A stretch of 36,177 nt of DNA from an uncultured Dehalococcoidaceae bacterium (GCA_964460815.1 CAYWRT010000006.1:1-36177); one strand, 5' to 3'; shown: positions 10,276-31,847, counted from the first letter of the stretch. Notes: generated from the letters alone by a model not told the origin. Numbers and translations: made by a program.

Positions 10276-10571
10276 CGCTGGCCAGTTCTTAAAGCTTCAC
10301 CTTATTACCAGAACATATCAACATCATAATGAACATATTTTGTGGTTTTTTTGTGACCTATTTGTTATAGAGCATCTGCGGTTAGCCTGAGACGACAGTG
10401 AAAAAATGGAAAATCTTTAATAAGTTATTAACTTATTGACTACCCTGACATATCGGCAATATTATTCTTATTAGTATTAGTGCTGTTATTAAAAAATATT
10501 GAATATGATTACAAATAACTAATATCATTAAACTGACAATAAACATTTAATTAAAAGACGGATTATGCGGG
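10276..10571. other. Probable oriC / DNA-unwinding element
   Basis: Very AT-rich, directly downstream of dnaA; trio-like TATTAGTATTAG, then TGC and box-like TGTTATTAA (10469-10492); several TTATTAACA-like 9-mers. Confidence 0.65.
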
Positions 10572-16416: not shown

Positions 16417-16456
16417 GCGCAAATGAGTAATTGCGCAGTAACGCAATTGCGGAGAT
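16417..16456. repeat. 8-bp-periodic array (candidate centromere site)
   Basis: GCGCAAAT GAGTAATT GCGCAGTA ACGCAATT GCGGAGAT. Confidence 0.75.
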
Positions 16457-16563
16457 TACATTTTTACCGTCTCTGAGCCATTAGTTCCTGTTCGGTTATT
16501 GAGAGGGGGAACCCATGACTGCGCTTCCTTGACCGATGAGCCCGCCTGTGATACATTGGTAGT

Positions 16564-17196
16564 GTGGATATTACCTGGTTGGGTCATTCGTGCTTCATGA
16601 TTAAGGGCAGCCAGGCCACAGTTATTACTGACCCTTTCCCGCCAGATTTGGGGTACTCACTGGGCAAGCCTACTGCCAGTATCGTAACTGTGAGCCATCA
16701 GCACCCCTCTCATTCTTATGTTCAGGGCATTGGTGGGGAACCAAAAAAAGTCCAGGGTCCCGGCGAATATGAAATCAGCGGCGTCCTCATTATAGGGGTG
16801 GCTACATATCATGATGCCGAGGGAGGCAGCAAGAGAGGTAAAAACACCGTTTACCTTATGGAGGTAGACGGTATATCAGTCTGTCACCTGGGTGACCTCG
16901 GGCATGTGCTTACTTCCGAACAGGTGGAGGAGATTGGCAATGTTGATGTGTTACTGCTTCCTGTGGGCGGTGTATCCACAATAGATGCTGCCATGGCCGC
17001 CGAGGTCATTCGCCAGCTTGAGCCGAAGGCGGTAGTCCCCATGCACTACAAGACACCGGTAATTAACCGTGAGCTGGACCCTGTAGAAAAGTTCCTCAAA
17101 GAGATGGGCATGGAGCTGGTTGAACCCCGTCCCAAGCTGTCCCTCACCAGGACAAACCTGCCTACCAGCACGCAGGTGTTTGTGCTTAATTATTAA
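16564..17196 (+). CDS. Metallo-beta-lactamase-fold hydrolase; probably leaderless
   Basis: ITWLGHSCF, TDPF, SHQHPSH, HLGDLGH, PVGG, PMHY; TTGACC-N17-TACATT ends 6 nt before the GTG. Confidence 0.9.
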   Translation: MDITWLGHSCFMIKGSQATVITDPFPPDLGYSLGKPTASIVTVSHQHPSHSYVQGIGGEPKKVQGPGEYEISGVLIIGVATYHDAEGGSKRGKNTVYLMEVDGISVCHLGDLGHVLTSEQVEEIGNVDVLLLPVGGVSTIDAAMAAEVIRQLEPKAVVPMHYKTPVINRELDPVEKFLKEMGMELVEPRPKLSLTRTNLPTSTQVFVLNY

Positions 17197-17292
17197 GGCT
17201 TGTTTGGGTTCTGTTCGGTATAGGCTTTGAGTTTACTCCGTCTGGTCTCACCCCTTTTTGACCTCACCCCTGGCCGTGATTACATATCTATA

Positions 17293-17332
17293 CCCACCCG
17301 CCGCCCTCGCGGCACCTAAGACTTATCCCGTA
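17293..17332 (+). repeat. Dispersed ~41-bp repeat copy
   Basis: CCCACCCGCCGCCCTCGCGGCACCTAAGACTTATCCCGTA. Confidence 0.8.
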
Positions 17333-17352
17333 ATTTTGTCAGCCGCGCAGGC

Positions 17353-17381
17353 TTGACAAAACCCGTAACTGGCATTATGAT
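17353..17381 (+). promoter_or_regulatory. Promoter of the USP gene
   Basis: TTGACA-N17-TATGAT. Confidence 0.6.
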
Positions 17382-17478
17382 TATAACCTCAGAACAAGGG
17401 TGCAACAGGGTAGGAGTGCCTGTGGCGAAGGACTATTAGTGGCGGGAAAAAATTTTATAAAAGACATGGAGGAAGAGT

Positions 17479-17967
17479 ATGTATAAGAAGATAATGGTTC
17501 CCCTGGATGGCTCGGAGCTGGCGGAATGCGTGCTTCCCCACGTGGAGGTAATTGCTAAGGGCTGTGGCGTGGCGGAAGTCATTTTTACACGGGTGGTTGA
17601 GCCCGCAATTCTGCCAAGTGGCGCCCTGACTGACGGGGGCGCCGTATTGACGGAGATAGACACCGAGCGAACACGAAAGCAAATAGATGCGGGTAACAAA
17701 TTAGCGGCTAGGGACTACCTTGACCACCTGATAAGTCGTATCAAACTGGATAAGGTAAAGATGCGAACAGAAGTACTCGATGGAAAGGCTGCCGAGGAGC
17801 TGGCTGAGTACGCTACGGACAATGATATCGACCTTATTATTATCGCCACTCACGGGCGCTCCGGAATCAGCCGCTGGGTCTGGGGGAGTGTCGCTGACCG
17901 GCTTCTTCGCTCGGCCTGCGTGCCGGTTCTGATGGTGCGGGCTCCCGGCTGCATTCCCGGTATTTGA
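17479..17967 (+). CDS. Universal stress protein
   Basis: YKKIMVPLDGS, DLIIIATHGRSG, GSVADRLLR..PVLMVR. Confidence 0.95.
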   Translation: MYKKIMVPLDGSELAECVLPHVEVIAKGCGVAEVIFTRVVEPAILPSGALTDGGAVLTEIDTERTRKQIDAGNKLAARDYLDHLISRIKLDKVKMRTEVLDGKAAEELAEYATDNDIDLIIIATHGRSGISRWVWGSVADRLLRSACVPVLMVRAPGCIPGI

Positions 17968-18010
17968 GGTTAGTAGTAGAGATATAAGCGATTATAAGTG
18001 CTCGGTACTA

Positions 18011-18724
18011 TCAGTCGTGGTCTAAGAAATCCAGCAGGAGGCGGTTGAAGGCGTCCCTATTTTGCCCGTGGGGGGCATGCCCGTAGCCCGGCATTATCGC
18101 CAGATGTGCCCTTGGTATCAATGCCTTGGCACGGCGGGCTATTGACAGGGGTAAATAAGGGTCAAGGCGTTTCCAGATAAGAAGCGTTGGCGTGCTCAGC
18201 TTTGGCAACTCACTGACGCAGAGCCACTGCGTATCCTCACCTTCTCTGGCCAGAAATTTGGGAAAAGGTTGCCGGAGCCGCAGCAGCTTGCGTACCACCC
18301 AGAAGCCGGTAAGTACGATATTCCCAAATATGGAAATTTTGCCGAGCCCGGCGGCATCCAGTAAAACAAGTTTGCGTGCCTTTTCCGGGTAGCTCAGGGC
18401 GATTTCCAGACACAACCTGCCCCCGAAGGAGTGCCCTACCAGGACCGGGTGCTCCAGCCCCAGCGTCTCCAGGAATCCCAGGATGAATTCAGTGAAGTCA
18501 GAGAGGTAGTAACCGTCTTTATTTCTGTCACTCAAGCCGAAGCCTATCAGGTCGGGGGCATAGAGGCTGTAGCGGTGGGAGAGGGCAGCCATGGTATACA
18601 CCCAGTCCCGGGAGTCGCTGGCCCCGCCGTGTATCAGTACTACCGGGGGACCGCTGCCCGCTTTCAGGTAATGCGCCTGATTATCGCCAACCCTGAGCTT
18701 CAGACTTTCAATACCTGCCTGCAT
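18011..18724 (-). CDS. Alpha/beta-fold hydrolase
   Basis: LIHGG, DLIGFGLS, GHSFG nucleophile elbow, GHAPH. Confidence 0.92.
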   Translation of the reverse strand: MQAGIESLKLRVGDNQAHYLKAGSGPPVVLIHGGASDSRDWVYTMAALSHRYSLYAPDLIGFGLSDRNKDGYYLSDFTEFILGFLETLGLEHPVLVGHSFGGRLCLEIALSYPEKARKLVLLDAAGLGKISIFGNIVLTGFWVVRKLLRLRQPFPKFLAREGEDTQWLCVSELPKLSTPTLLIWKRLDPYLPLSIARRAKALIPRAHLAIMPGYGHAPHGQNRDAFNRLLLDFLDHD

Positions 18725-18808
18725 ATCTTTGCCCTTCTTCTTACTTGCCGGATGTCTTTATCCAGATAAAAATGCATTGTGGTGGCATAGCGGAGTTGGT
18801 GAGGCGTA

Positions 18809-19471
18809 CTAGTTAGCTTCGTCGTTCTGTTTCGTACCCTTGCCTGTCATTATTCTCCAGAACCAGTTAAGCTTTATCTTTTTTACCTCAACATTCACAA
18901 AACCTGTTTTAATATACAGGTTCCTCAGTTCTTCTGCTGTCGTGCTTCCCACATGCGCTTTTTCACCGATTTTGCCCGCGTAGTCTACTATTTTCATCAA
19001 CAGGTAATCGTTGCATATATCCTGAATTATATAGACCCCGTTACGTTTTAAAGATTGCCATACCCTGTAGAAAATCTCTTCTTTTTTGTCGAAATGGTGG
19101 AAGGCATTCGTGCTGAGAACAAAATCGAAATAACCGTTATAATCCAGAGAACCGCCATTCCCTACCAGAAATTCCACATTGTCATACCTGAATCTGGCCA
19201 GCTTCTGTTTGGCTTGCTCAATCATTCGGCGAGATAAGTCCAGGCCAACAACTCTGCCGGTTCCTTCGAGCCTGGCCGCGATATCAATAGTCCCCTGTCC
19301 GGTACCGCAGCCGAGGTCCAGGATATTCATTCCCTTTTCAATTTGCATCCTGCTTATCACGACAGTCTGGCTTCGGCGCTGGAAAGACCTGACAAGTCGG
19401 GATTCATCATAACTCCTGGCTGCCCGGTCAAACTCCCGGGCTATATATTCATCTTGCCCTTTCTTGCTCAC
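18809..19471 (-). CDS. Class I SAM-dependent methyltransferase (UbiE-like)
   Basis: ILDLGCGTG, GLDLS, AFHHF; directly downstream of LysR. Confidence 0.92.
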   Translation of the reverse strand: MSKKGQDEYIAREFDRAARSYDESRLVRSFQRRSQTVVISRMQIEKGMNILDLGCGTGQGTIDIAARLEGTGRVVGLDLSRRMIEQAKQKLARFRYDNVEFLVGNGGSLDYNGYFDFVLSTNAFHHFDKKEEIFYRVWQSLKRNGVYIIQDICNDYLLMKIVDYAGKIGEKAHVGSTTAEELRNLYIKTGFVNVEVKKIKLNWFWRIMTGKGTKQNDEAN

Positions 19472-19472
19472 C

Positions 19473-20375
19473 TCAGTAGCTGCTTCTTTCGTAGGATTGG
19501 ACGAAATTTATAAATTCCTCAAGCAGACGGGTAACCACCCTCTCCTGGCGGTAAATGCAGTAGAAGTCCCGGCTCAGCCTCAGCCCGCTGACGCTAACCT
19601 GCCTGACCAGACCGAGAGCCAGGCTCTTATTAATCGCCAGATTCGACACAAAGGCAATCCCGGCCCTGGCTTCCACAGCCGAGACCACTGCCTGCGTGGT
19701 GCCCAGAATTAGATTGGGCACCCATTTCCTCAGGTCAAGCCCGGCCTGGGACAGGTGGGTTTCCAGGTTTTGCTGAGTGCCTGAGGTTTCCTCACGGAAG
19801 ATGAGCGGCTCACCGGCCAGCTCGGCGGGCGACACCTCGCCCCGCTGGGCGAAGGGGTGCTCCGGAAAAACAATGAGGACAATCTCATCCCCGCTTACCC
19901 TGAATGACTCGAGCTCCTGCCCTTCAGGTGCCATGCCGCAGAACCCCACCTCGTAGGCATTGTCCCGCACCCCGTTGATGACGGCGACAGAATCGGAGAC
20001 CGCCACCTGGACTCTTACGGCCGGATGCAATGCCTTGAATTTCGTCAGCAGCGGGGGCAGCAGAAACTCACCCGGGATGGTGCTGGCGGCGATGAGCAGG
20101 TCGCCGGAAACCTTCTCACGCATCTGGTCCAGGTCGTGATGGAGCTGCTGGCGCAACTCCTCTATAGATTCAGCGAAGCGGAGGAGGCGCTTGCCGGCGG
20201 CGGTCAGGGTAATCGCCCTCTGGGTGCGGTCAATCAGGCGGATGCCGAGTTCATGTTCCAGCTTCTGAATTTGAAAGGAAACCGCCGGCTGGCTGATGGA
20301 CAGCTTCTTGGCTACTTCCGAAAAGCTGCCGAGCTTGACTACCTCCTGAAAGGTCTTGAGATGGTCTAGGTTCAT
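19473..20375 (-). CDS. LysR-family regulator, probably selenium-metabolism associated
   Basis: N-terminal HTH SFSEVAKKLSISQPAVSFQIQKLE, AASTIPGEFLLP, REETSGT; divergent from yedE-selD. Confidence 0.92.
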   Translation of the reverse strand: MNLDHLKTFQEVVKLGSFSEVAKKLSISQPAVSFQIQKLEHELGIRLIDRTQRAITLTAAGKRLLRFAESIEELRQQLHHDLDQMREKVSGDLLIAASTIPGEFLLPPLLTKFKALHPAVRVQVAVSDSVAVINGVRDNAYEVGFCGMAPEGQELESFRVSGDEIVLIVFPEHPFAQRGEVSPAELAGEPLIFREETSGTQQNLETHLSQAGLDLRKWVPNLILGTTQAVVSAVEARAGIAFVSNLAINKSLALGLVRQVSVSGLRLSRDFYCIYRQERVVTRLLEEFINFVQSYERSSY

Positions 20376-20393
20376 TTTGCTTTAAGGGTAATA

Positions 20394-20437
20394 TAAGTAA
20401 AATCTTACTTGCGCTAAGATATTTCTTATGATATAAT
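20394..20437. promoter_or_regulatory. Two LysR-type dyad boxes and the yedE promoter
   Basis: TAAG-N6-CTTA at 20394-20407 and 20415-20428; TTGCGC-N17-TATAAT at 20409-20437. Confidence 0.6.
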
Positions 20438-20504
20438 CTCCTCAGATTATTTTATGGTATTTATGGCAAATCAGCAAGTAAGCAGAGGAAAAGAAGAAGA
20501 GTCT

Positions 20505-20614
20505 AAGAGAGGCTTCGCCTCTCTTTAACAATAATTCACCCTCCCTTACCAAGGGAGGGTGACACAGGGGGAGGGTTGTAAAGTATTGAGGGGGTGAGCT
20601 TAGTCAACACTCTC
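20505..20614. repeat. Hairpin cluster / MITE-like element in the yedE leader
   Basis: AAGAGAGGC-TTC-GCCTCTCTT; TCACCCTCCCTT-ACC-AAGGGAGGGTGA; reverse complement of 20589-20614 matches 24470-24495 at 22/26. Confidence 0.65.
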
Positions 20615-20659
20615 AGTGAGGTGGTGCTGATATAGCTGCCGGACGGAAAGGGGATAATC

Positions 20660-21736
20660 TTGAGGAATAAAAGAATATTCATTATCGTCGCCGGGCTCAT
20701 TTTCGGGGCTCTGGGGGCGCTGATGGTCAACTGGGGCAACCCCGCCAACATGGGCATCTGCGTTGCCTGCTTTATCCGCGATATCGCCGGCGCCATCGGC
20801 ATCCATCGGGCCGCAGTGGTGCAGTATCTCCGGCCGGAAATCATGGGGTTTGTTCTGGGCGCTTTCGTTACCTCCTTCGCTTTCCGCGAGTTCCGTGCCC
20901 GGGGCGGTGCCTCTCCTATAATCCGCTTTCTCATGGGCGCCTTTGTCATGATTGGTGCCCTGGTGTTTCTGGGCTGCCCGATACGGATGATGCTGCGCAT
21001 CGCCGGCGGCGACCTCAACGGGATTACGGCTCTTATTGGCCTGGTGGCGGGGGCACTGGCGGGCATTTTCTTTCTGAAGAGGGGCTTTAACTTCGGGCGC
21101 GCTACCCGAATGCACCCGCTGGTGGGCTGGATGATGCCCCTGATGATGGTGGGGCTGCTCCTTTTTGCCATCTTCAAGCCGGGCTTTATCTTTGCCAGCG
21201 AATCGGGGCCGGGGGCCGCTTTCGCCCCGCTGGCGGTGGCTATTGTGGTCGGGCTGGTGGTCGGCTTTCTGGCACAGAGGACCCGCATGTGCTTTGTTGG
21301 TGCCTGGCGCGACATATTCCTGGTCAGGGATACCTATCTCATAAGCGGCGTGGCGGCTTTCTTTATCGCCGCCCTGATTACCAACTACGCTGTCGGCAAC
21401 TTCGGCGCCGGGGGCATATACCACTGGGGCTTTGCCGACCAGCCGGTAGCCCCTACCGACCACCTCTGGAATTTCCTGGGCATGGCTTTAGTAGGCCTGG
21501 CGGCCACCCTGATTGGCGGCTGCCCGCTGCGTAACTGTATTCTCTCCGGTGAGGGCGATACCGATGCCGGCATGACCGTTCTGGGTTACTTCGCCGGCGC
21601 CGCCTTTGCCCATAACTTCCTGCTGGCCTCCAGCCCCAGCGGCACGGGTGCCTGGGGCCCGGTGGCGGTTATCATCGGGCTGGTCTTCTGTCTGGCGATT
21701 GGCTTTATAATGATGGAGAGGGCAAGAAGTAGCTAG
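20660..21736 (+). CDS. yedE: YedE/YeeE-family putative selenium transporter
   Basis: GNPANMGICVACFIRD, FLGCP, QRTRMCF, GGCP; multi-TM; selD context. Confidence 0.9.
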   Translation: MRNKRIFIIVAGLIFGALGALMVNWGNPANMGICVACFIRDIAGAIGIHRAAVVQYLRPEIMGFVLGAFVTSFAFREFRARGGASPIIRFLMGAFVMIGALVFLGCPIRMMLRIAGGDLNGITALIGLVAGALAGIFFLKRGFNFGRATRMHPLVGWMMPLMMVGLLLFAIFKPGFIFASESGPGAAFAPLAVAIVVGLVVGFLAQRTRMCFVGAWRDIFLVRDTYLISGVAAFFIAALITNYAVGNFGAGGIYHWGFADQPVAPTDHLWNFLGMALVGLAATLIGGCPLRNCILSGEGDTDAGMTVLGYFAGAAFAHNFLLASSPSGTGAWGPVAVIIGLVFCLAIGFIMMERARSS

Positions 21737-21747
21737 AGGGAATAAAC

Positions 21748-22287
21748 ATGGCGTTTCTGAAGCGTAAAAAGGCGGCTTTTGAGGGCGCGGGCCTGGTTCT
21801 CTTCAACGAGGTATCGGACGCGATGCAGGCAGAAAAAACTTTGAAGAGGGCAGGCTATCAGGTAAAGCTGGTGGCGCCGCCGCCCGAGCTGCGCAAGGGC
21901 TGTGACCTGGCCGTGGCCATAAACCTGGTGGAGAAGCTCGGTATTGAGCGGATACTCCGGCAGAGCGACGTCGCCTATGTTGAGGTAGCGCCGCTCAGAA
22001 TAGATACCTCGGAGATACTGGAGATTGTCAGGGTGACTGACTTCGGCGACTGGGTGATGGTCAAGGCGGCCAACATGAAGCTAACCTTTGAGAAGAAGAG
22101 CGGGGTCATCGTCAACACCTCCGGTGGCGGCTGCCCTGATATCCCTTACCTGCATGCTGAGCTGATTGATAAACCGCTTGGCGAGGCGCCGCGCCCCGGT
22201 GAACTCGGCTTTACTCTTTGCGCCCTGATGCTGGAAAGGGCCCTTGAGGAGAGCCTGGCTCTCTATAAGGGGGGTGAGATGCCATGA
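21748..22287 (+). CDS. DUF3343-like (selenium-associated) protein
   Basis: AMQAEKTL..LVAPPPELRKGCDLA N-terminal motif; C-terminal SGGGCPDIP..TLC. Confidence 0.75.
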   Translation: MAFLKRKKAAFEGAGLVLFNEVSDAMQAEKTLKRAGYQVKLVAPPPELRKGCDLAVAINLVEKLGIERILRQSDVAYVEVAPLRIDTSEILEIVRVTDFGDWVMVKAANMKLTFEKKSGVIVNTSGGGCPDIPYLHAELIDKPLGEAPRPGELGFTLCALMLERALEESLALYKGGEMP

Positions 22288-23183
22288 TGCTTATTGCCGG
22301 TACTGTCCCCATCGCGGACATGCCCCTGACCCTGGGGGAGGTGAGTGCCGAGGGTGATTTTCTGCTGGTTGACGGGCGGTGTGTCCCCTGCACCCAGGGC
22401 ACCGGTGCCATGGTCAGCGCCGCCCTGGCGACCACTGACTACCTGAAGCTGGAAGCACCGCAGGTGCTTTTAGCCGGCGACACTGGACAGGGTAAGGGCA
22501 GCCGTAAGCTTTATGAGTATTTAATCAGGAATATAGCTGAGCTGGCACCGCAGGTGCTGGCGCTGCATTACTGGCTCCCGAATATAGTTCAGACGAGGCA
22601 ACTGTGTGACGCCATTAAAGAGTGTGCCCGCCGGCCGGTAATGATTGCCGATGCCGCCTCGATGTATTCCGCCAAGGCAACCGGGCTGGCTGGCGACTTT
22701 GATATTTTTACCCCGGATGCTACCGAGATGGCGTTTCTGGCCGACCCCGCCGCCACCCACCCGGCCTATGTCCAGAGGCACCTGATTGACACCGATATCA
22801 AACGGACGCCCGAGCTTATCAAGACCGCTTATCGGAACGGGAGTGCCGCCCGGCTGCTGCTGGTGAAGGGTGCCGTTGACTACATAGTCAGTAATGGCGA
22901 GATTTTGGCTACCGTGAGTGAGCCCGATGTGCCGGTGATGGAGGCCATCGGCGGCACCGGTGACACCATTACCGGTCTGGTCTCGGCTCTGGTCTACGCC
23001 GGCCTGGAGCCTCATGAGGCGGCCATTATCGCTGCCCGCGCCAACCGCATGGCGGGAAAGTTTGCTCAAGCCACTCCGGCCACCAGAGTCAGGCAGGTTA
23101 TTGCCCAGTTTCCGGCTGTTTTCCGGGAGTACCTGTGTCAATGGAGTGGCGTTTGCTATACGCAGGGAGTAAAATATGACTGA
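22284..23183 (+). CDS. Ribokinase/carbohydrate-kinase-fold protein (YjeF-C-like), function unknown
   Basis: IADA, FTPDATE, LLVKG, AIGGTGDTITG anion-hole motif. Confidence 0.75.
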   Translation: MMLIAGTVPIADMPLTLGEVSAEGDFLLVDGRCVPCTQGTGAMVSAALATTDYLKLEAPQVLLAGDTGQGKGSRKLYEYLIRNIAELAPQVLALHYWLPNIVQTRQLCDAIKECARRPVMIADAASMYSAKATGLAGDFDIFTPDATEMAFLADPAATHPAYVQRHLIDTDIKRTPELIKTAYRNGSAARLLLVKGAVDYIVSNGEILATVSEPDVPVMEAIGGTGDTITGLVSALVYAGLEPHEAAIIAARANRMAGKFAQATPATRVRQVIAQFPAVFREYLCQWSGVCYTQGVKYD

Positions 23184-23394
23184 AGTTGATGTCCGGGGCT
23201 TTTCCTGCCCCATACCGGTGGTCAAGACCAAGAAAGCGATGGAAGATAATCCAAAAGATGTGCTGACGGTGCTGGTGGAAACCGAGGTCTCCAAGGAGAA
23301 CGTCTCCCGGCTGGCACAGAGCCGGGGGTATTCGGTCAGGGAGGAAGCGGTATCCGGCGAGTACCGGCTCACGCTGACACCACCGGGTAAATAG
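23176..23394 (+). CDS. TusA/SirA/YedF-like sulfur or selenium carrier
   Basis: VDVRGFSCPIPVVKTKKA. Confidence 0.9.
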   Translation: MTEVDVRGFSCPIPVVKTKKAMEDNPKDVLTVLVETEVSKENVSRLAQSRGYSVREEAVSGEYRLTLTPPGK

Positions 23395-23414
23395 AATACT
23401 GGAGGGGCGAGTAG

Positions 23415-24464
23415 ATGGGTGATGAGGCAAGACCGCGTCTCACCGAGACCGTTCATGGTTCCGGTTGAGCTTGTAAGATGGGTCCGGGAGACCTTGCCCA
23501 GGCGCTGGCTGGCCTGCCACTTATATCCGACCCGAATCTCATAGTGGGTATAGAGCGGGCTGAGGATGCCGGTGTCTACAAGCTGACCGATGAGCTGGCT
23601 ATCGTTCAGACGCTTGATTTCTTCACGCCGATAGTAGATGACCCCTATGCCTTCGGTCAGATTGCCGTCGCCAATGCGCTGAGCGATGTCTATGCCATGG
23701 GTGGCCAGCCCCTGACGGCGATGAATATTGTCTGCTTCCCGCAGAAGAAGATGGACATATCTATACTGAGGGATATCCTGGCCGGGGGTCTGGAAAAGAT
23801 GCATGAGGCGGGGGTAATACTGGTGGGCGGGCACAGCGTTGAGGATGACGAGTTGAAGTACGGGATATCGGTCACCGGCACCATCCACCCGGCTAAGGTC
23901 GTCCTCAACACCGGTGCCAGGGCTGGCGACCGGCTGGTTCTGACCAAGCCACTGGGCACGGGCATAATAAGCACGGCGATTAAGGGCGGTATGGCTGGTG
24001 AAGGGGCGGTCGCCAAAATCACCAGGTCCATGTCCACCTTAAACCTGAAGGCATCGGAGCTGATGCAGGCCACCGGTGTTAATGCCTGCACTGATGTTAC
24101 CGGCTTTGGCCTGCTCGGCCATGCCGCCGAGATGATTGAGGGGACCGATGTGGGCATGGTGATAGACTCGACGGCGGTGCCGTTCTTCCCTGAGGCGAGG
24201 GAGTTTGCCGTGATGGGCATGATTCCCGCTGGACTCTACCGCAACCGCGAGTTCCGTAAAAATATGGTTGAGGTGGCTCAGGAGGTTCCCCAGTATCTGG
24301 CCGATATCCTCTTTGACCCCCAGACCTCGGGGGGCCTGCTGATTTCGGTGCCGGAACACAAGGCATCAAGGCTGCTGGGGAGGCTGCATAAAGCCGGCAT
24401 CAGTGAGGCGGCCATCATCGGTGAGGTGGTTAGTGAGCCCAAGGGCAGGATTATCATCCGTTAA
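23415..24464 (+). CDS. selD: Selenide,water dikinase, selenoprotein form (UGA=Sec at codon 18)
   Basis: SD GGAGG then ATG 23415, in frame MGDEARPRLTETVHGSG-U-ACKMGPGDL; TGA at 23466-68; DFFTPIVDDP, NALSDVYAMGG, DVTGFGLLGH, DPQTSGGLL. Confidence 0.95.
23469..23503 (+). promoter_or_regulatory. Bacterial SECIS-like hairpin
   Basis: GCTTG..GGTC-CGGGA-GACC..CAGGC; G-containing apical loop begins 16 nt after the UGA. Confidence 0.7.
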
Positions 24465-24469
24465 TCAGA

Positions 24470-24843
24470 GAGAGTGTTTGCGAACCTCACCCCCTTACCC
24501 CCACCTCGTTTCTAATCTAATCCCACCCTGCCGCCCTCGCATCACCTATTGCTTAGCCCGTGAATATTCCACCCCTTATCCCCACCCCGCCTTGGAAATC
24601 CCTCTCGGTCTCCCTTTAATTAAAGGGAGACGACCCATCGTGCAAAAAGTATTGTCCCCCTTTGCAAAAGGGGGACTAAGGGGGATTTCCCCTACGGGAT
24701 AAGCAGAAAAAGTGCCAAGGGTGGCTTGGGTGGGAATAGATAAAAAGGAAAAGGAGGGGCGAAGCACCTCTATAACTCCCTGTGGGTGTGGTGGGGAGAG
24801 AACTACGAGATAAGCCATAGATGAAACGAGGGCGGCGGGTGGG
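24470..24843. repeat. Composite repeat cluster (three ~41-bp copies plus hairpins)
   Basis: Copies at 24522-24562(+), 24693-24734(-), 24804-24843(-); hairpins TCTCCCTTTAATTAAAGGGAGA and CCCCCTTTGCAAAAGGGGG. Confidence 0.8.
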
Positions 24844-24862
24844 AAAAGATATATCAGCATTT

Positions 24863-24902
24863 CCTCATTAACGCAATTGCGCAATTACTCTTTTGAGCAA
24901 CT
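24863..24902. repeat. 8-bp-periodic array overlapping the 3' end of the RHH gene
   Basis: CCTCATTA ACGCAATT GCGCAATT ACTCTTTT GAGCAACT. Confidence 0.6.
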
Positions 24903-25218
24903 CGGTATCGTCCTTAACTCCCCGTACGTCAAGGCTGGTCTTGCGGAAAGCCCGCACCATGGCCTCGATGAGCTTGGTCTTGCTGAGCTTCTTGCCGCCG
25001 CTGAACTTGGCGGTTGACGCCAGGTTCTCCAGATAGGCGTCTTCTTCACGGTTGAGAAATACGGACAGCTTAATCATATTTGTCTTGGGTGTCCTGGGCG
25101 ACTCGGGCGTCGGGACTGGTTCCCTCTGTTCCGGCGGTGCCACGGGCTTATCGCTGCCAGTGAGGCGGTTCAGAGCGGTTCCGTAGGCAAGCTCCTCGGT
25201 TATTCTAGCTCTTTTCAT
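24868..25218 (-). CDS. Small ParA partner, predicted ribbon-helix-helix DNA-binding protein (116 aa; start reassigned to ATG at 25218)
   Basis: Overlaps the parA 3' end with SD GAGGTG; Pro-rich N-terminal tail; strand MIKLSVFL, helix EEDAYLENLAS, helix SKTKLIEAMVRAF. Confidence 0.7.
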   Translation of the reverse strand: MKRARITEELAYGTALNRLTGSDKPVAPPEQREPVPTPESPRTPKTNMIKLSVFLNREEDAYLENLASTAKFSGGKKLSKTKLIEAMVRAFRKTSLDVRGVKDDTELLKRVIAQLR

Positions 25219-25990
25219 GCAACACCTCTTCTGTAAGTAATCTATAGGCTTCGGCCCCATCTGATTTGGGGGCATAGGTCAGGATTGACATCCCGGCTGC
25301 CGGGGCTTCCTTGAAACGGACACTGGTGGGGATAATGGCGTCAAATACTCTGATTCTGTCGCCAAAGGCTCTCTTGGTAACTTCGATGACCTCCCGGCTG
25401 TGCAGGGTGCGGGGGCTGGTCATGGTGAACAATATGCCCGAAATCTCCAGGGAAGGGTTGAGCCTGTCCTTCACCTGGATAATTGTGCTCAGCAAAAGTG
25501 CCAGCCCTTTCATCGCCAGGAAGTCAGCCTGCAGGGGTATGATTACCCTGTCGGCGGCGGTCAGGGCGTTGATGGTCAGCAGTCCGAGGCTGGGCAGGCA
25601 GTCCACCAGTATAAAATCGTAGTCCGGGCGCACCGGCTGGAGCATCTCTTTTAACATAAGTTCGCGGGTAGACGCCTCCACCAGGTCAAGCTGTGCCTGG
25701 GATAGCTCTATATTAGCCGGGACAAGGTCAATATTGGGATTGCTGGTGGGGATGGTAACGTCGGGGATTAGGTGGCGGCCATTATTTCTGATGGTGCTCG
25801 TCAGAGCATCGTAGACAGTGAGCTTCAGGTTATCAGGGTTGAATCCCAGGCTGATGGTAAGGCTGGCCTGCGGGTCCCAATCAATTACCAGCACCCGCTT
25901 GTCACGCTCGCTTAACCCCTGGGCCAGGGCGGCTGACGTGGTTGTCTTACCGACGCCACCCTTCTGGTTGGCGATGGCGATAATTGGCAT
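25205..25990 (-). CDS. parA: ParA/Soj-family ATPase without N-terminal HTH
   Basis: NQKGGVGKTT, DWDPQAS, VDCLPSLG, VRFKEAP. Confidence 0.95.
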   Translation of the reverse strand: MPIIAIANQKGGVGKTTTSAALAQGLSERDKRVLVIDWDPQASLTISLGFNPDNLKLTVYDALTSTIRNNGRHLIPDVTIPTSNPNIDLVPANIELSQAQLDLVEASTRELMLKEMLQPVRPDYDFILVDCLPSLGLLTINALTAADRVIIPLQADFLAMKGLALLLSTIIQVKDRLNPSLEISGILFTMTSPRTLHSREVIEVTKRAFGDRIRVFDAIIPTSVRFKEAPAAGMSILTYAPKSDGAEAYRLLTEEVLHEKS

Positions 25991-26011
25991 ATCCCGGTTC
26001 CTTTACGGGAA

Positions 26012-26065
26012 ATTATAGCGCAATTGCGTAAATGCGTCAATACTCTACTGCGCAACTGCGAATTT
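26012..26065 (-). promoter_or_regulatory. parA promoter overlapped by a six-unit 8-bp array
   Basis: Minus strand TTGACG-N17-TATAAT (26040-26012); plus strand GCGCAATT GCGTAAAT GCGTCAAT ACTCTACT GCGCAACT GCGAATTT (26018-26065). Confidence 0.8.
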
Positions 26066-26157
26066 CCCATCCTCGTTTCTCTGGATGGCTGCCTTGGAGC
26101 CGGCGCTCTTGGATGGGAGCAAATTAAAAAAAATTTTAAAAATTTACTCAATAAGTA

Positions 26158-26186
26158 TTGACAAAATTAATATATTCTCTTATAAT
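26158..26186 (+). promoter_or_regulatory. Consensus sigma70 promoter of the DUF2089 operon
   Basis: TTGACA-N17-TATAAT, followed by TATTAA-rich repeats. Confidence 0.75.
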
Positions 26187-26261
26187 ATATTAATAATATT
26201 AAGTTATATATTAATTATATTAATTATTAACGGTGATTTTTATTTAGAGAGGTGATCTGGT

Positions 26262-26624
26262 ATGTCCCGAGAATGGCATGAGCTCACGAAAATGACCCAG
26301 GGCAGGCCGATAACTGTGGAGCGTGTCCGCCTGGTTGACGATGATATCGCCATTGAGGGCAGCTTCACGCTACCGCCTCTGGCCAATCTTTCTGCCGAGG
26401 ACCAGATTTTTGTCATGGCCTTTGTTCGGTGCCATGGTTCCATCAAGGAAATGGAAGAGATGTTCGGCATAAGCTATCCGACGGTTAAAAACCGTATCAA
26501 CCGCATTGCCCGGCAGCTCCCGTTTGTTGAGATAGTGTCCGTTACTCCCCAGGAGGAAGTAATTGACGAACTCGAGAGAGGTGACATAAGCGCCGAAGAG
26601 GCGATAAGGAGGCTATCGAAATGA
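26262..26624 (+). CDS. DUF2089-family HTH protein
   Basis: IEGSF..LSAEDQIF..GSIKEMEEMFGISYPTVKNRI, LERGDISAEEA. Confidence 0.85.
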   Translation: MSREWHELTKMTQGRPITVERVRLVDDDIAIEGSFTLPPLANLSAEDQIFVMAFVRCHGSIKEMEEMFGISYPTVKNRINRIARQLPFVEIVSVTPQEEVIDELERGDISAEEAIRRLSK

Positions 26625-26899
26625 AACGACCACCGGTGTTAATGCGCCTGCGCTTTCATAACGGGGACAGGAAATTTGGATTGTGGCTGCCGTTGTTCCT
26701 GCTCATTCCACTGGCGCTGGTGGTACTTATTATACTGTCGCCGCTAATAATTATCGCTATCGTTGTTCTGTGGCCGAGCGGCTGGGGTAAGCTGGCACTG
26801 CTGGTTTTGCAGGCGGCCTGGGGGTTACTATGCTCGATGCCTGGCCTTAAGGTTGATGTTCGGAATCCTAATCAATGTGTATATATATCGGTTATATAA
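26621..26899 (+). CDS. Small membrane protein (DUF2089 operon)
   Basis: ATGA overlap with the upstream gene; two hydrophobic segments. Confidence 0.75.
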   Translation: MKRPPVLMRLRFHNGDRKFGLWLPLFLLIPLALVVLIILSPLIIIAIVVLWPSGWGKLALLVLQAAWGLLCSMPGLKVDVRNPNQCVYISVI

Positions 26900-26920
26900 A
26901 TAACAAAGGGGGATATTATA

Positions 26921-27364
26921 ATGACTGAGAACCAGAAAAAAATACTGGAGATGTTGTCCAAAAACAAGATAAGTATTGATGATGCTTATCGACTGCTCAA
27001 CGTGATTGATTCCGGGGAAGGCGAGCCGGGAAGTACCGTAAAAGCAGAACCAGGCGGTAAATCCATGCCTAAATACCTGCGTGTTACGGTAGTGCCCAAT
27101 CCAGAACATAAGAACGCTGACAATGTTGACCGCGTTAACGTCCGCGTGCCCATGTCGCTGATACGTGCTGGAATCAAGCTGACATCCTTAATACCGTCCG
27201 ATGCCATGGATAAGGTGAGTGATACTTTAAGGGACAAGGGTATCGACTTCGATGTGCGCAGCGTTAAATCCGAGGACCTCGAGGAGCTTATCGAAGCGCT
27301 GGGCGATATGGAAATTGATGTGGAGAGTGGCAAGGGGGAGAGAGTAAAGGTTTTTGTCGAATAG
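26921..27364 (+). CDS. SHOCT-like N-terminal domain protein (DUF2089 operon)
   Basis: KKILEML..KISIDDAYRLL, KYLRVTV, VNVRVPMSLI. Confidence 0.75.
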   Translation: MTENQKKILEMLSKNKISIDDAYRLLNVIDSGEGEPGSTVKAEPGGKSMPKYLRVTVVPNPEHKNADNVDRVNVRVPMSLIRAGIKLTSLIPSDAMDKVSDTLRDKGIDFDVRSVKSEDLEELIEALGDMEIDVESGKGERVKVFVE

Positions 27365-27420
27365 CTTGATGATATATATCTTGTTAGCTTCTGGCAGTTA
27401 ACTGTATTTATAAAACAATG

Positions 27421-27468
27421 GCGCAATTGCGTAAATGCGTTAATGCTCAATTACGTAGCTGCGGTACT
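27421..27468. repeat. 8-bp-periodic array (candidate centromere site)
   Basis: GCGCAATT GCGTAAAT GCGTTAAT GCTCAATT ACGTAGCT GCGGTACT; first 20 bp identical to 26018-26037. Confidence 0.8.
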
Positions 27469-28203: not shown

Positions 28204-28583
28204 GTATGGCTATTCGTCGGAGTAGCCTTTTATCGCCCCTCAGGATTTACCCTCAACTATTCGGGATAACAGAAGACCGCTGATAGCCTGTTTGAGTCCC
28301 ACAGTCTTTACTGGCTTTTCCGCATACCATGATAGCGGCGGCTGAGTTTGGCCCAGCGCTTGAGAGCTTACTGCGTCTTGCTTGGCTTATTGTATCCAAA
28401 CATTACAAACGTACCATATGGATTAAACATAAGTACCGCCGCCACCATGACTAATTGGCTATTTACAGCCCGCATCCGATTAACCACAATAATTAATGGG
28501 GCATTGTATCCGGAACCATGGATACAATCTATTTCGCTATTGAGAGGCTTGTATTTCTTTACAACCGACCAAGAGGTATATAT

Positions 28584-28928
28584 ATGAAAGGTGAGAAGGG
28601 AGCCTCACTGGTGGAAACAGTCGTGGCACTGGCGCTGCTGGGCCTCATTAGCCTGCCTTTCCTCAGTGCTTTGGCCACCACTTCTAATGCCAGGTTGATT
28701 GCTGATGAGCACGCTGCCGCCAGGATTCTGGCCGAATCCTACATGGAGGATATCAGACAGCAGGAATATGCCTTTTCTTATGACACCCCTCCCGTTACCG
28801 AAGACGGCTATTCAACTCAGATTAATGTTGATAACCTGCGTAACAAAAATATTCAGAAGATAACGATAACTGTGAGACACCACGGTGGGGACATAACTTC
28901 TTTGGAGAGCTACAAGACAAACCGATGA
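28584..28928 (+). CDS. Type IV minor pilin (PilV-like); start reassigned to ATG at 28584
   Basis: Class III signal KG/ASLVETVVALALL with E5; SD GAGG. Confidence 0.85.
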   Translation: MKGEKGASLVETVVALALLGLISLPFLSALATTSNARLIADEHAAARILAESYMEDIRQQEYAFSYDTPPVTEDGYSTQINVDNLRNKNIQKITITVRHHGGDITSLESYKTNR

Positions 28929-29452
28929 CATTTCATAAATTTTGGCCGATACGGGAGAACCAGAAGGGCTTTACTTTGCTTGAGCTGTTAGTAGCCCTAG
29001 CCATTACCAGCTTTATTAGCGTCGGGGTAGCCATGGCCACCGTGCAGGTGGTTGACCAGGGGGGCCGGAACAGTGACTATAACACTGCCAGCCGGAACAC
29101 GCTGAATGCCATCCACTGGATTAGCCGTGATGCCCAGATGGCTCAAACCCTGGAACCGGGTGGTTCATCGGGCTTTCCCCTCAACCTGAGCTGGGTTGAG
29201 TGGGATAACACCGTTCACCAGGTTACCTATGCTGAGGATGGGGACAGGCTGAGGCGGAGCTACTCTATTATTGGTGGTGGGGCACCAAATGTGACTCTGG
29301 TGGCTCAGTACATTAACTGGGTATCGGAGAATACCACCTGTGATTTCAGTGACGGTATTCTTGAATTGACAGTGACCACCACTGTCGGCACTGGCTTAAA
29401 CGCAGTCAGCGTAACCAGAACGCATGATATTGCCCCCCGCCCCGGATTGTGA
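28925..29452 (+). CDS. Type IV minor pilin (PilW/PulJ-like)
   Basis: QKG/FTLLELLVALAI, WISRDAQMA. Confidence 0.88.
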   Translation: MTFHKFWPIRENQKGFTLLELLVALAITSFISVGVAMATVQVVDQGGRNSDYNTASRNTLNAIHWISRDAQMAQTLEPGGSSGFPLNLSWVEWDNTVHQVTYAEDGDRLRRSYSIIGGGAPNVTLVAQYINWVSENTTCDFSDGILELTVTTTVGTGLNAVSVTRTHDIAPRPGL

Positions 29453-29456
29453 AGAG

Positions 29457-31847
29457 ATGGTTAACAGGATAAAGACTAACCTAGTTAAATATGTTAAACG
29501 TTTAAATGAGGAGAAAGGGCAGGCTCTAATGTCGGTCCTTGCCTTCCTGCTCATAAGCAGTCTGACCCTGCCACCTATCCTATCTCACATGCGCACGTCG
29601 CTTCAAACAGGGAAGGTGTATGAGGATAAGACAGACCAGCTGTATGCGGCTGATTCGGGGATTGAAGACGCCCTCTGGCAGATAAAGTATGACCGGCTGG
29701 AGCCGTTGTTCACTAACCCGGCTTATAACATCTATGACTTCGGTACGACCTGGTCATACCGTCTAAACGACCCGATAAATAACCTCACGGCTAACGTAAG
29801 TATCCGGAACGTCTGGATTCCGAGCAACGTATCGCCGCCATCAGACGCGGTTGAAGCCAGGGAAATCATTGAGTCAAACAAGCTGATGGTAGCCGGCACG
29901 GCTACTGACGAATCAAACTACAAGATAAAGATAAGCTTCAGTCCCGGTGAGGGTGAGGAGGAGGCTTTGATGGTCGAGTCGCTGGGAATATGGCTGCCGC
30001 TCGGTTTCCACTACAGCGGCTCCTGCACCCTGGCAACCGTACCTGGTGCGCAATACTACTCGGAAGATGTTACGGATTATGCCGGCGGCGAGTCCGTGGT
30101 CTGGGAATTCACCCCCTCTATTGCTTTCACGTCCTTCGGGGCTGACCCCGGGGAAATGCCGATGATAGCCGAGATTAGCTTTCAATATACCGCCGATGAG
30201 GCGGGAGCCGAACCGGCGACCGTTTCTTGGATAGAGACCTACGGCGCTATTACTGATATCCTCCCCGTTACCTGGGATATTGACACCAGGATTTACACAA
30301 TTACCTCGGTTGCCGGTGATACCGAGATTGATGCCTACTCGTCCAAATGCGAATTGCGCAAGATGGGTGACGCCATTGCCGGTGACTACTGTGCCATCGG
30401 CAACTCTCTGATGAGAGATATTAATCATGACAACTACCGGGAAACCTGGCTTTCCGAGAGCAGTACCGAGGTCGATACTATTCCCAATGATGCGGAAGAG
30501 GGTTTCGCCGACGTGATTCAGGCCCATCTTTACTGGTCAGGGTGGCGGAATGAGAGCAGAAAGCAAACGGAGCTTTCTGAATCCTGCAGTAACTTTGACA
30601 GGTGGATTGACGGCAGTAGCTGGGATATTGGTAGTAATTACTTTCAGGGCCATTACAGCAGCTCGGGAGAAGACCCTCGCTGTCTCACCCTGAAAAGTGA
30701 GTATAGCCTGGACCTGAGTTCTTACGCTGATATGGGAGCAGTAACGGTCTCCTGGGAACAGTGGGAGACTGGAAACCTGGAGTCTGGCGATGGACTTGAC
30801 TTTGCTTTTTCCCCCGATGGCGGTAATACCTGGAGCAGTTACATTGAAGCCTTCCGCGGTAATATCGGTAGTTCACGGCAGGATTTTTGCTACGTTATCC
30901 CCTCCGATATAATCCCCTCCACTTATTTGACTGATGACTTCAAGCTGAAGTTTTACCTGGTCGGTTTTGCCGAATCCGACGACAATTATTGCCGTATAGA
31001 TAATATTCAAGTCAAGTCAATGATGCCAGACTACGACGCCGTCTTCAAGATAGATGACAATCAGGTCTATCTGGATAATGGAGAGGCTGCGCAGGGTCCC
31101 GTAGACATAGTCGCCACAAGAACACAGGTCTTACCCAATTATGACAGTAGTGGTAACCCCAATGGCTTTTCCTACTCCTGTTACCTGGATGTCACCAAGC
31201 TTGTAAAAGCGTATGGTGAAGTGGTCGAGGATGAATACGGCATTGAACACCATACCGGCAACGAGAACTACACCGCCGGGGATGTGGTTGCCGATACCGG
31301 CAACATGTGGTCTTACGCTGGCTGGTCTCTGATAATTATTTACTCCAGTCCGGAGACGGCGGGGCATCAGCTTTATCTCTGGGACGACTTTATGTACGCC
31401 GATGAGGACACGAATATCGACTTCGACGGCGATGGCGTTGATGGCGGCGACATAACCGGTTTTGTCGTTCCGGAGCAAATCGAGGGCATACCAAATGCGG
31501 CCAAGCTGACCTGCTTCGTGGGCGAGGGCGATACTTATACCGGTGACAAACTGAAGTTTACCGGTCAGTCGGGGTACAGTGAGTACCTTGAAAATGACGA
31601 AAGTCCCTGGAGTAATGTCTGGAACTCACAGTCGCCGGGTTTTGACTATGACGGTGTTGACATTGACACCTTTGACGTTCCCTGGAAGAATTCTTATAAC
31701 CAGAATCTGGTAGAGCCGGGTGATACTTCAGCACACTTAGACCTTCCCACCGGGCAGGATAGCTGGAATCTGGTGTATATAATTCTATCCATGCAGAGCC
31801 TGACCGTTACCGGCGGTACCGTGCACTACGTTATACAATATGGCTAG
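29457..31847 (+). CDS. Large PilX-like pilin with acidic beta-rich adhesin-like domains; start uncertain (ATG 29457 assumed)
   Basis: KG/QALMSVL without E5, YAADSGIEDA (PilX-N like), long D/E/Y/W-rich C-terminus. Confidence 0.8.
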   Translation: MVNRIKTNLVKYVKRLNEEKGQALMSVLAFLLISSLTLPPILSHMRTSLQTGKVYEDKTDQLYAADSGIEDALWQIKYDRLEPLFTNPAYNIYDFGTTWSYRLNDPINNLTANVSIRNVWIPSNVSPPSDAVEAREIIESNKLMVAGTATDESNYKIKISFSPGEGEEEALMVESLGIWLPLGFHYSGSCTLATVPGAQYYSEDVTDYAGGESVVWEFTPSIAFTSFGADPGEMPMIAEISFQYTADEAGAEPATVSWIETYGAITDILPVTWDIDTRIYTITSVAGDTEIDAYSSKCELRKMGDAIAGDYCAIGNSLMRDINHDNYRETWLSESSTEVDTIPNDAEEGFADVIQAHLYWSGWRNESRKQTELSESCSNFDRWIDGSSWDIGSNYFQGHYSSSGEDPRCLTLKSEYSLDLSSYADMGAVTVSWEQWETGNLESGDGLDFAFSPDGGNTWSSYIEAFRGNIGSSRQDFCYVIPSDIIPSTYLTDDFKLKFYLVGFAESDDNYCRIDNIQVKSMMPDYDAVFKIDDNQVYLDNGEAAQGPVDIVATRTQVLPNYDSSGNPNGFSYSCYLDVTKLVKAYGEVVEDEYGIEHHTGNENYTAGDVVADTGNMWSYAGWSLIIIYSSPETAGHQLYLWDDFMYADEDTNIDFDGDGVDGGDITGFVVPEQIEGIPNAAKLTCFVGEGDTYTGDKLKFTGQSGYSEYLENDESPWSNVWNSQSPGFDYDGVDIDTFDVPWKNSYNQNLVEPGDTSAHLDLPTGQDSWNLVYIILSMQSLTVTGGTVHYVIQYG

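Follow-up and report, generated by a model that had tools for sequence, protein, structure and literature searches.

Genes and repeat arrays beside dnaA

The DNA described here, hereafter the window, is the whole of contig C6 (36,177 bases; GCA_964460815.1, CAYWRT010000006.1) from the metagenome-assembled genome (MAG) of an uncultured Dehalococcoidaceae bacterium, order Dehalococcoidales. It carries a parA gene, a small overlapping gene for a 116-aa protein and four short arrays of DNA boxes, which we examine here as a candidate chromosomal partition system. The assembly, coded G000, comprises 2,087,754 bases (2.09 Mb) in 201 contigs and is 75.6% complete; codes such as G001, G005 and G012 stand for the genomes of relatives. 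Besides dnaA, contig C6 contains obg, fmt, mazG, rtcB with archease, and selD, and the sign of the GC skew changes at about 9 kb. None of the scanned open reading frames (ORFs) of the window belonged to an integrase, rep or transposase family, which agrees with the original prediction, made from the sequence alone, in which no integrase or rep gene was in view. Since the contig carries dnaA and the skew switch, and no mobile-element families were found on it, C6 is the chromosomal origin region. An E. coli-type DnaA-box consensus gave 19 matches with one mismatch allowed, against 7.2 expected, none of them clustered beside dnaA. Therefore, only dnaA and the skew switch locate oriC.

The product of parA matches AAA_31 over residues 2-183 and has no N-terminal extension or helix-turn-helix (HTH) domain; its deviant Walker A motif, KGGVGKT, occupies residues 10-16. 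In a PDB sequence search, the best solved relatives were chromosomal ParA/Soj proteins, with E values from 1e-44 to 1e-57. These include 8ray (2.8e-57), two more ParA-type chains (about 2e-52), Soj of Helicobacter pylori (6iub, 3.8e-50) and 1wcv, a "segregation protein" entry (6.1e-45). The plasmid protein delta reached only 1.7e-18, and ParF was not among the 20 PDB sequences listed at E<=1e-10. The small gene begins with an ATG at 25218, inside parA, whose stop codon lies at 25205-25207. The two genes thus share 14 nt, and GAGGTG stands 5-6 nt upstream of the ATG. An HTH-less ParA translationally coupled to a 116-aa protein had been noted originally. Of note, the ParA matches of two relatives (G042:C3:19073-19852 and G046:C143:6476-7252) each contain one in-frame TGA; selD adjoins the locus in the window.

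The four arrays (Table 1) keep a strict 8-bp register, in which a GCGC, GCGT/ACGC or GAGT/ACTC-type box is followed by an AT-rich spacer. Array 1 reads, from 16417, GCGCAAAT GAGTAATT GCGCAGTA ACGCAATT GCGG; array 2, from 24871, ACGCAATT GCGCAATT ACTCTTTT GAGCAACT; array 3, from 26018, GCGCAATT GCGTAAAT GCGTCAAT ACTCTACT GCGCAACT GCGA; and array 4, from 27421, GCGCAATT GCGTAAAT GCGTTAAT GCTCAATT ACGTAGCT GCGG. All four predicted arrays are real and in phase, although the one originally placed at 24863-24902 is in phase only from 24871. Given the position of dnaA and the skew switch, the arrays lie about 6-17 kb from dnaA, the distance that had been claimed. The promoter-like site of parA falls within array 3, and the boxes therefore fill the spacer between its -35 and -10 elements. 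Array 3 would thus be an operator at the putative parA promoter and, likely, a centromere site as well. Array 4 lies 18 nt upstream of a TTGACA-16-TATAAT site that precedes a flavodoxin-like gene.

These arrays are confined to the dnaA region. The 10-mer CGCAATTGCG occurs four times in the genome, once per array. A rule-based scan of the 201 contigs found runs of at least four units at these four sites only, plus a single run of three elsewhere (C2:937), whereas ten first-order Markov genomes of the same size yielded no run of at least four and 0.9 runs of three per genome. The scan rule is circular, as its box set was drawn from the arrays themselves, but the absence of runs elsewhere in the genome is not. 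We also built R1, a sequence-only DNA model of 26 arrays from 16 genomes. At E<=1, R1 gave 11 matches in G000: ten at the four C6 sites and a weak one on C27 (E 0.46).

Table 1. Features of the locus on contig C6. R1, score of the array model.
Feature	Position	Strand	Description
parA	25205-25990	-	261-aa Soj-type Walker ATPase; Pfam AAA_31 2e-60, CbiA 2.8e-25
Small-protein gene	24868-25218	-	Candidate centromere-binding protein, 116 aa (P0001); translation
Array 1	16417-16456	.	4-5 boxes; intergenic, between rtcB and metallo-beta-lactamase-fold gene; R1 26.5 bits
Array 2	24871-24906	.	4 boxes; over last codons and stop of small gene; R1 27.9 bits
Array 3	26018-26065	.	5-6 boxes; overlaps parA promoter-like site; R1 31.6 bits
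Array 4	27421-27468	.	4-6 boxes; intergenic; R1 35.3 bits, best match in G000
parA promoter-like site	26012-26040	-	TTGACG-17-TATAAT; 11/12 consensus positions
Terminator-like hairpin	24654-24676	-	10-pair stem, then T run; about 190 nt downstream of small gene
dnaA	8923-10275	+	Pfam Bac_DnaA 1.4e-64, Bac_DnaA_C, DnaA_N; marks replication origin region

Regarding the surroundings of the locus, C-runs and G-runs abound in the 400 bp that separate selD from the small gene (24465-24860). This spacer contains a second minus-strand hairpin (24715-24729) besides that of Table 1, and no ORF with a family match was found in it. Divergent from parA, a perfect TTGACA-17-TATAAT site at 26158-26186 is followed by a gene for a DUF2089 zinc-ribbon/HTH protein (26262-26624) and two ORFs, of 92 aa and 147 aa, the latter with a weak, SHOCT-like match (region to 27364). 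Further on (28518-31847) there are two ORFs with prepilin-type N-terminal methylation motifs, at 28518-28928 (weak) and 28925-29452, and then an 807-aa ORF without a Pfam match.

The putative partner protein of ParA

An alignment of 27 sequences (A1) divides the 116-aa protein into three parts. Residues 1-21 form a nearly invariant peptide, in which K2, R3, T7, E8, Y12, L16, R18 and G21 do not vary. Residues 22-46 are a variable Pro-rich linker. Residues 47-116 make up a conserved core, with a strand-helix-helix order and a third helix, where K50, S52 and F54 are invariant. The AlphaFold2 (AF2) monomer model obtained with a broader alignment has a predicted local distance difference test (pLDDT) value of 86 over its whole length, exceeding 92 within residues 50-116. 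Residues 47-56 are extended in this model, and three helices follow, at 57-72, 80-94 and 104-115.

The homodimer model scored 0.63 in three runs (best of three controls, 0.00). Of proteins whose structures were solved as pairs, 20 of 30 met this level, compared with 1 of 23 solved as single chains. Between runs, at least 97% of contacts agreed, with a partner pLDDT of at least 65. The dimer contacts with the lowest error are 50:54, 51:53, 52:52 and 53:53; moreover, helix 2 lies against helix 2 (84:84, 87:87) and the third helix against the other subunit. In the model, two antiparallel strands form a ribbon with S52 at its centre, that is, a ribbon-helix-helix (RHH) arrangement.

A profile comparison points in the same direction. 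Using hhalign, the A1 profile aligned over 80 columns (92.6% probability, E 4.5e-7) with an 89-aa protein of G062, the gene product that follows the closest outgroup ParA, and the alignment includes a shared N-terminal motif. The G062 partner scores 3.3e-4 on Pfam RHH_3 (21.0 bits, just under the cut-off of 21.6). BLASTP gave no alignment between the two proteins, and the link is detected by profile comparison alone. Neither P0001 nor P0123 matched any Pfam family at E<=5 or reached the gathering cut-offs of RHH_1 and RHH_3; the remote homologue P0141 scored 0.046 on RHH_1. In a protein atlas searched with residues 45-116, the nearest clusters were unnamed short proteins of Acidobacteriota and Omnitrophota (0.89-0.90), and a CopG-type RHH cluster at 0.82 serves as a lead only. 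Altogether, we consider the RHH fold of the small protein probable. In this sense, the predicted RHH protein finds support in the ribbon of the homodimer model and in the profile link to a sister partner close to RHH_3; the fold search brought no confirmation.

A family of 75-110-aa proteins without a Pfam match (P0132-P0193, alignment A3) has its core in common with the small protein and lacks the N-terminal peptide. This core features an AKFSGG-type turn and a DV.GVK.E.EL stretch ahead of the third helix. Single-protein scans of genome and metagenome contigs for loci of the A3 family found nothing. PDB sequence and profile searches with A1 and A3 at E<=10 returned designed proteins only (E 0.1-6); SegB gave no sequence match to the small protein at that threshold, and the PDB profile searches gave none for ParG either.

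Distribution in relatives and searches for ParB and SMC

The small protein was found in 26 of the 30 other genomes of the family. R1 arrays (E<=0.01) occur in exactly the same 26 genomes, 12 of which gave no sequence to R1, and the small protein, ParA and the arrays hence co-occur. In the remaining four (G021, G022, G043 and G044, 70-93% complete), neither the small protein nor a Soj-like ParA nor arrays were found. In the carriers, the small gene adjoins the same ParA and, where contigs permit, lies 8-30 kb from dnaA. Across 22 of 24 genera, its product keeps an identity of 66-88% and the reading frames are intact, and the order selD, small gene, parA, DUF2089 gene is syntenic in several genera. 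The layout of the parA-promoter array is kept in all 16 relatives with upstream DNA available, and an array of at least four units is found at the 3' end of the small gene in 7 of 17 genomes.

The confinement of the arrays is most apparent in four relatives with long contigs, where matches span 13-37 kb around dnaA. In G041 (1.9 Mb in four contigs, one of 1.56 Mb), all 11 R1 matches, at six sites, fall within C2:980255-1010693, with dnaA at 986382-987669. All 14 matches of G001 lie on C23:52989-85041 (dnaA 80030-81343). In G012 there are 29 matches on C3:5267-18391, in a contig of 139,760 bases with dnaA at 9716-11038, and on the short contigs C47 and C39, one of them with parA. For G005, the 14 matches listed of 17 lie on C53:76478-113678 (dnaA 105809-107131). 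G022, which has no small protein, gave no R1 match at E<=1 (dnaA C11:16917-18269). As a side observation, the dnaA match of G041 is split into two adjoining pieces (query residues 20-341 and 342-448), which suggests a frameshift or an assembly error. The original prediction had named arrays spread uniformly over the genome, and a locus lying in an integrated plasmid missing from relatives, as outcomes that would speak against it. The arrays are instead clustered by dnaA in G000, G041, G001, G012 and G005, and the small protein is found beside the same ParA in 26 of 30 family genomes. As far as computation goes, these tests support the prediction.

Neither ParB nor parS had been seen originally, and searches of the assembly (75.6% complete) did not find them either. 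The ParB_N domain (PF02195) had no match in G000, and a 16-bp parS consensus had none with up to two mismatches in its 2.09 Mb. Elsewhere, ParB_N matches were obtained in 2 of 24 family genomes and for 6 of 16 families sampled elsewhere in the order; those in G001 and G006 are short. The order-level match in G035 (L013) lies beside a radical-SAM gene and an ORF that by eye resembles a phage terminase small subunit, and probably sits on a mobile element. The SMC model TIGR02168 stayed below its cut-off in all five family genomes searched (G000, G041, G012, G005 and G022), with a best score of 28 bits against a cut-off of 567, which 9 of 14 control genomes passed. The lineage may thus be without both ParB and SMC.

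The family of the small protein is narrow. It was detected in 22 of 24 family genomes, in 1 of 16 other families within the order and, as two weak matches only, among 300 genomes of the class. A single full-length cluster at 50% identity was found among 1.84 billion representatives, and the named homologues, from Dehalococcoidales or Chloroflexi MAGs, are all annotated as "hypothetical". The arrangement itself reaches further. The 29 best Soj-like ParA loci of 150 genomes from the class differ in what follows parA, namely a small overlapping ORF of the strand-helix-helix type in 7, ParB in 21 and neither in 1. We then placed these loci, together with 14 from the family and G037, in an unrooted maximum-likelihood tree of 43 ParA rows. 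A branch with 100/99 support parts 21 RHH-coupled ParAs, including that of the window, from 22 ParB-coupled or orphan ones. The root is not fixed, so this pattern may reflect either a single switch of partner or the import of one module. Of five genomes outside the family with a parA-RHH pair, four gave no ParB_N match. The fifth, G126, has both this pair and a canonical parA-parB pair (C1:5165-5905, C2:21782-22914), so the two systems can coexist. The parA-RHH pair lies 14 kb from dnaA in G148 and 81 kb in G151. Upstream of a remote pair (G090:C46, L037), the DNA is AT-rich, with repeated CATAT/TATAA-type words and no GCGC boxes, as would be expected for a partner with a different ribbon sequence.

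A putative origin-region partition system and its known counterparts

The locus had been classed as a plasmid-style type Ib partition system. The small protein, with its probable RHH fold, and the box-spacer arrays agree with that class, as described for TP228 (PMC3130281), whereas the ATPase is closest to chromosomal Soj/ParA. A type Ib system has a small Walker-type ParA without an N-terminal HTH domain, like the 261-aa protein found here, and iterated repeats at an autoregulated promoter, which the sequence anatomy of array 3 would fit. Its centromere-binding protein is an RHH dimer with a flexible N-terminal tail, for which the homodimer model and the profile link speak here, and against which stand the Pfam and Foldseek searches. 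Such systems are also plasmid-borne, with an ATPase of the ParF/delta branch, whereas this contig holds dnaA, obg, fmt and rtcB, and its ParA has Soj-like relatives. A Soj-type ParA with origin-proximal, albeit putative, centromere sites is in turn a mark of chromosomal ParABS, in which a ParB_N protein is encoded beside parA; here, the downstream ORF is of 116 aa and has no ParB domain.

We think it likely that the locus is a chromosomal partition system of the origin region, in which a Soj-type ParA works with a small dimeric RHH-like protein in the place of ParB. By analogy with ParG, dimers of the small protein would coat the arrays of GCGC, GCGT/ACGC and GAGT/ACTC boxes in 8-bp steps, one dimer per box. 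Several arrays in intergenic DNA, over tens of kb around dnaA, would jointly form a multi-site centromere. The N-terminal peptide, which is conserved and flexible and spans residues 1-21 (K2, R3 and R18 invariant), may contact nucleoid-bound ParA-ATP and stimulate its ATPase, and the marked origin region would then track the ParA gradient. In addition, the array in the spacer of the parA promoter would confer autorepression.

Several observations weigh against this interpretation. The small protein has no sequence match in Pfam, NCBIfam or the PDB, and Foldseek with two monomer models retrieved no RHH chain (best E 3.9). The RHH assignment therefore rests on the complex model and on the transitive profile link, and the pass of the homodimer model may stem from likeness to solved dimers. 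The idea that residues 12-21 imitate ParB's ParA-binding motif was rejected. A position weight matrix (PWM) from 21 ParBs adjoining class-level ParAs ranked the small protein 387th of 4840 background ORFs and seven other RHH-type partners between 79th and 2368th, and mimicry at the N-terminus is hence unsupported. R1 matches at the 26 training sites arise by construction. Moreover, related genomes are not independent samples, and the four array-less genomes may be one clade. In a MAG that is 75.6% complete, ParB or further arrays could sit in unassembled DNA. Finally, arrays 1 and 4 stand just upstream of genes, array 4 abutting a strong promoter-like site, and could be plain operators.

This last point leads to an alternative that we regard as rather unlikely, yet as the best placed of those considered. 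RHH proteins are commonly repressors, and the small protein could be a mere local repressor, with the arrays as operators of an origin-proximal regulon (parA, the metallo-beta-lactamase-fold gene and the flavodoxin gene). ParA would then be unrelated, serving for instance another cargo or the regulation of DnaA; orphan ParAs that position other cargo have been described (PMC9178275). All arrays are indeed intergenic or at a gene end, near gene starts; array 3 overlaps a promoter, and the promoter-like site downstream of array 4 fits the consensus at 12 of 12 positions. However, the distal arrays are flanked by different genes in different genomes while their nearness to dnaA stays, and in G001 no array lies beside the metallo-beta-lactamase-fold gene. 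This argues that position near the origin, and not a fixed regulon, is the conserved feature. The dozen or more arrays that G012 and G005 have within 13-37 kb of dnaA also speak against local repression, as does the small gene, which always overlaps parA and is lost together with it. Besides, in plasmid type Ib systems the operator is a working centromere, as described for TP228 (PMC3130281).

A second alternative is that another protein, such as that of the divergent DUF2089 gene, binds the arrays, the parA-small gene pair being only a neighbour. The DUF2089 gene lies 200 bp from array 3 and adjoins parA in G041, G005 and G001, and DUF2089 was not found in the four genomes without arrays. Nevertheless, no homologue was found in G010, G015 and G009, three of the five array-bearing genomes tested, despite their ParA, small protein and arrays, and in G003 and G019 DUF2089 lies on other contigs. 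In the window, array 3 overlaps the promoter of parA and not that of DUF2089, and 4-bp boxes at 8-bp spacing suit the one-dimer-per-box mode of an RHH protein. We therefore deem this binder very improbable. We give equally little credence to a remnant of an integrated plasmid or mobile element, without present chromosomal function and kept by descent: a small RHH-like partner with iterated boxes is typical of plasmids, and G126 carries canonical parAB plus a parA-RHH pair, but the window lacks integrase, rep and transposase genes as far as scanned, the small protein is conserved with intact frames and synteny, every carrier has kept arrays in numerous distinct stretches of intergenic DNA around dnaA, and the ATPase groups with chromosomal Soj proteins.

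ParABS is regarded as the general machine of origin segregation in bacteria, and the CTP-driven clamp of ParB, its sliding and its loading of SMC are regarded as central. In the present genome, an ATPase of this kind seems to operate on a chromosome together with a partner incapable of clamping, sliding or loading SMC, and with a putative centromere multiplied into many short arrays. On balance, we lean towards the view that a branch of Dehalococcoidia swapped ParB-parS for small RHH proteins, whose Soj-type ParA partners form a clade of their own. Many short arrays near oriC would do there the job of ParB loading and sliding, namely to build a large origin-marking complex, in a family from which SMC is apparently missing too. 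It would be the first demonstrated case of a bacterial chromosome segregated by way of an RHH centromere-binding protein, a bacterial counterpart of archaeal SegAB. A literature search, with subscription journals and supplements outside its reach, found no account of partition in Dehalococcoidia, nor of any ParA-RHH system on a bacterial chromosome. If true, the functions specific to ParB are dispensable for ParA-driven chromosome segregation, partner replacement has a natural example inside the Soj lineage, and plasmid type Ib, archaeal SegAB and bacterial chromosomal systems are linked. With two small genes and a 40-bp site, the system is compact and could become an orthogonal module for DNA positioning.

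Among known systems, ParF-ParG-parH of TP228 also couples a small HTH-less ParA with a small dimeric protein, here dimeric by prediction, which is encoded downstream and has a flexible N-terminal tail. ParG recognizes ACTC boxes, each by one dimer, that are set apart by AT-rich spacers of 4 bp, and its promoter operator is of the same build as the centromere and doubles as one (PMC3130281). In the present locus, too, the putative operator has the build of the other arrays. Unlike TP228, the system described here is chromosomal, beside dnaA, and its short arrays, of 4-7 boxes each, are scattered over tens of kb, whereas TP228 has one block of 12 boxes plus 8. Its commonest box is the palindrome GCGC and not ACTC, its ATPase is Soj-like, and its partner has a third, C-terminal helix.

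A similar likeness holds for SegA-SegB of the archaeon Sulfolobus, a chromosomal pair of a ParA-type ATPase and a protein of about 110 aa. SegB has a disordered N-terminus, of which 21 residues activate SegA, followed by one strand and three helices; it is an RHH protein with extra helices, whose dimers coat DNA (PMC8682754). The sites of SegB described in that account lie next to the segAB operon, whereas the arrays found here are spread around dnaA. The present system is bacterial, and its ParA is closest to Soj proteins, which form sandwich dimers, while SegA is an atypical, non-sandwich dimer.

Regarding the bacterial chromosomal systems, the CTP-driven clamp and sliding of ParB (PMC12462528, PMC11229316) have no counterpart in a 116-aa RHH-like protein. 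With Soj-Spo0J-parS, the locus has in common a Soj-type ParA, several putative centromere sites near oriC and a partner with a conserved N-terminal peptide. It differs in that the partner is not ParB, that neither ParB_N nor parS was found in G000, and that the PWM of the ParB motif misses the N-terminus.

The delta-omega system of plasmid pSM19035 has a 7-bp heptad as its repeat, whereas the unit here is of 8 bp. It is plasmid-borne, and delta is a distant relative of this ParA, with the E value of 1.7e-18 given above. Both systems have iterated short repeats at several places on one replicon, and omega, an RHH-type global repressor as well as a centromere-binding protein, is described as binding such repeats at several promoters (PMC4498918, PMC2441792, PMC9499535). 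Altogether, by analogy, the system would resemble plasmid type Ib and archaeal SegAB in its working, but at the origin of a bacterial chromosome, with a Soj-type ATPase and a dispersed centromere.

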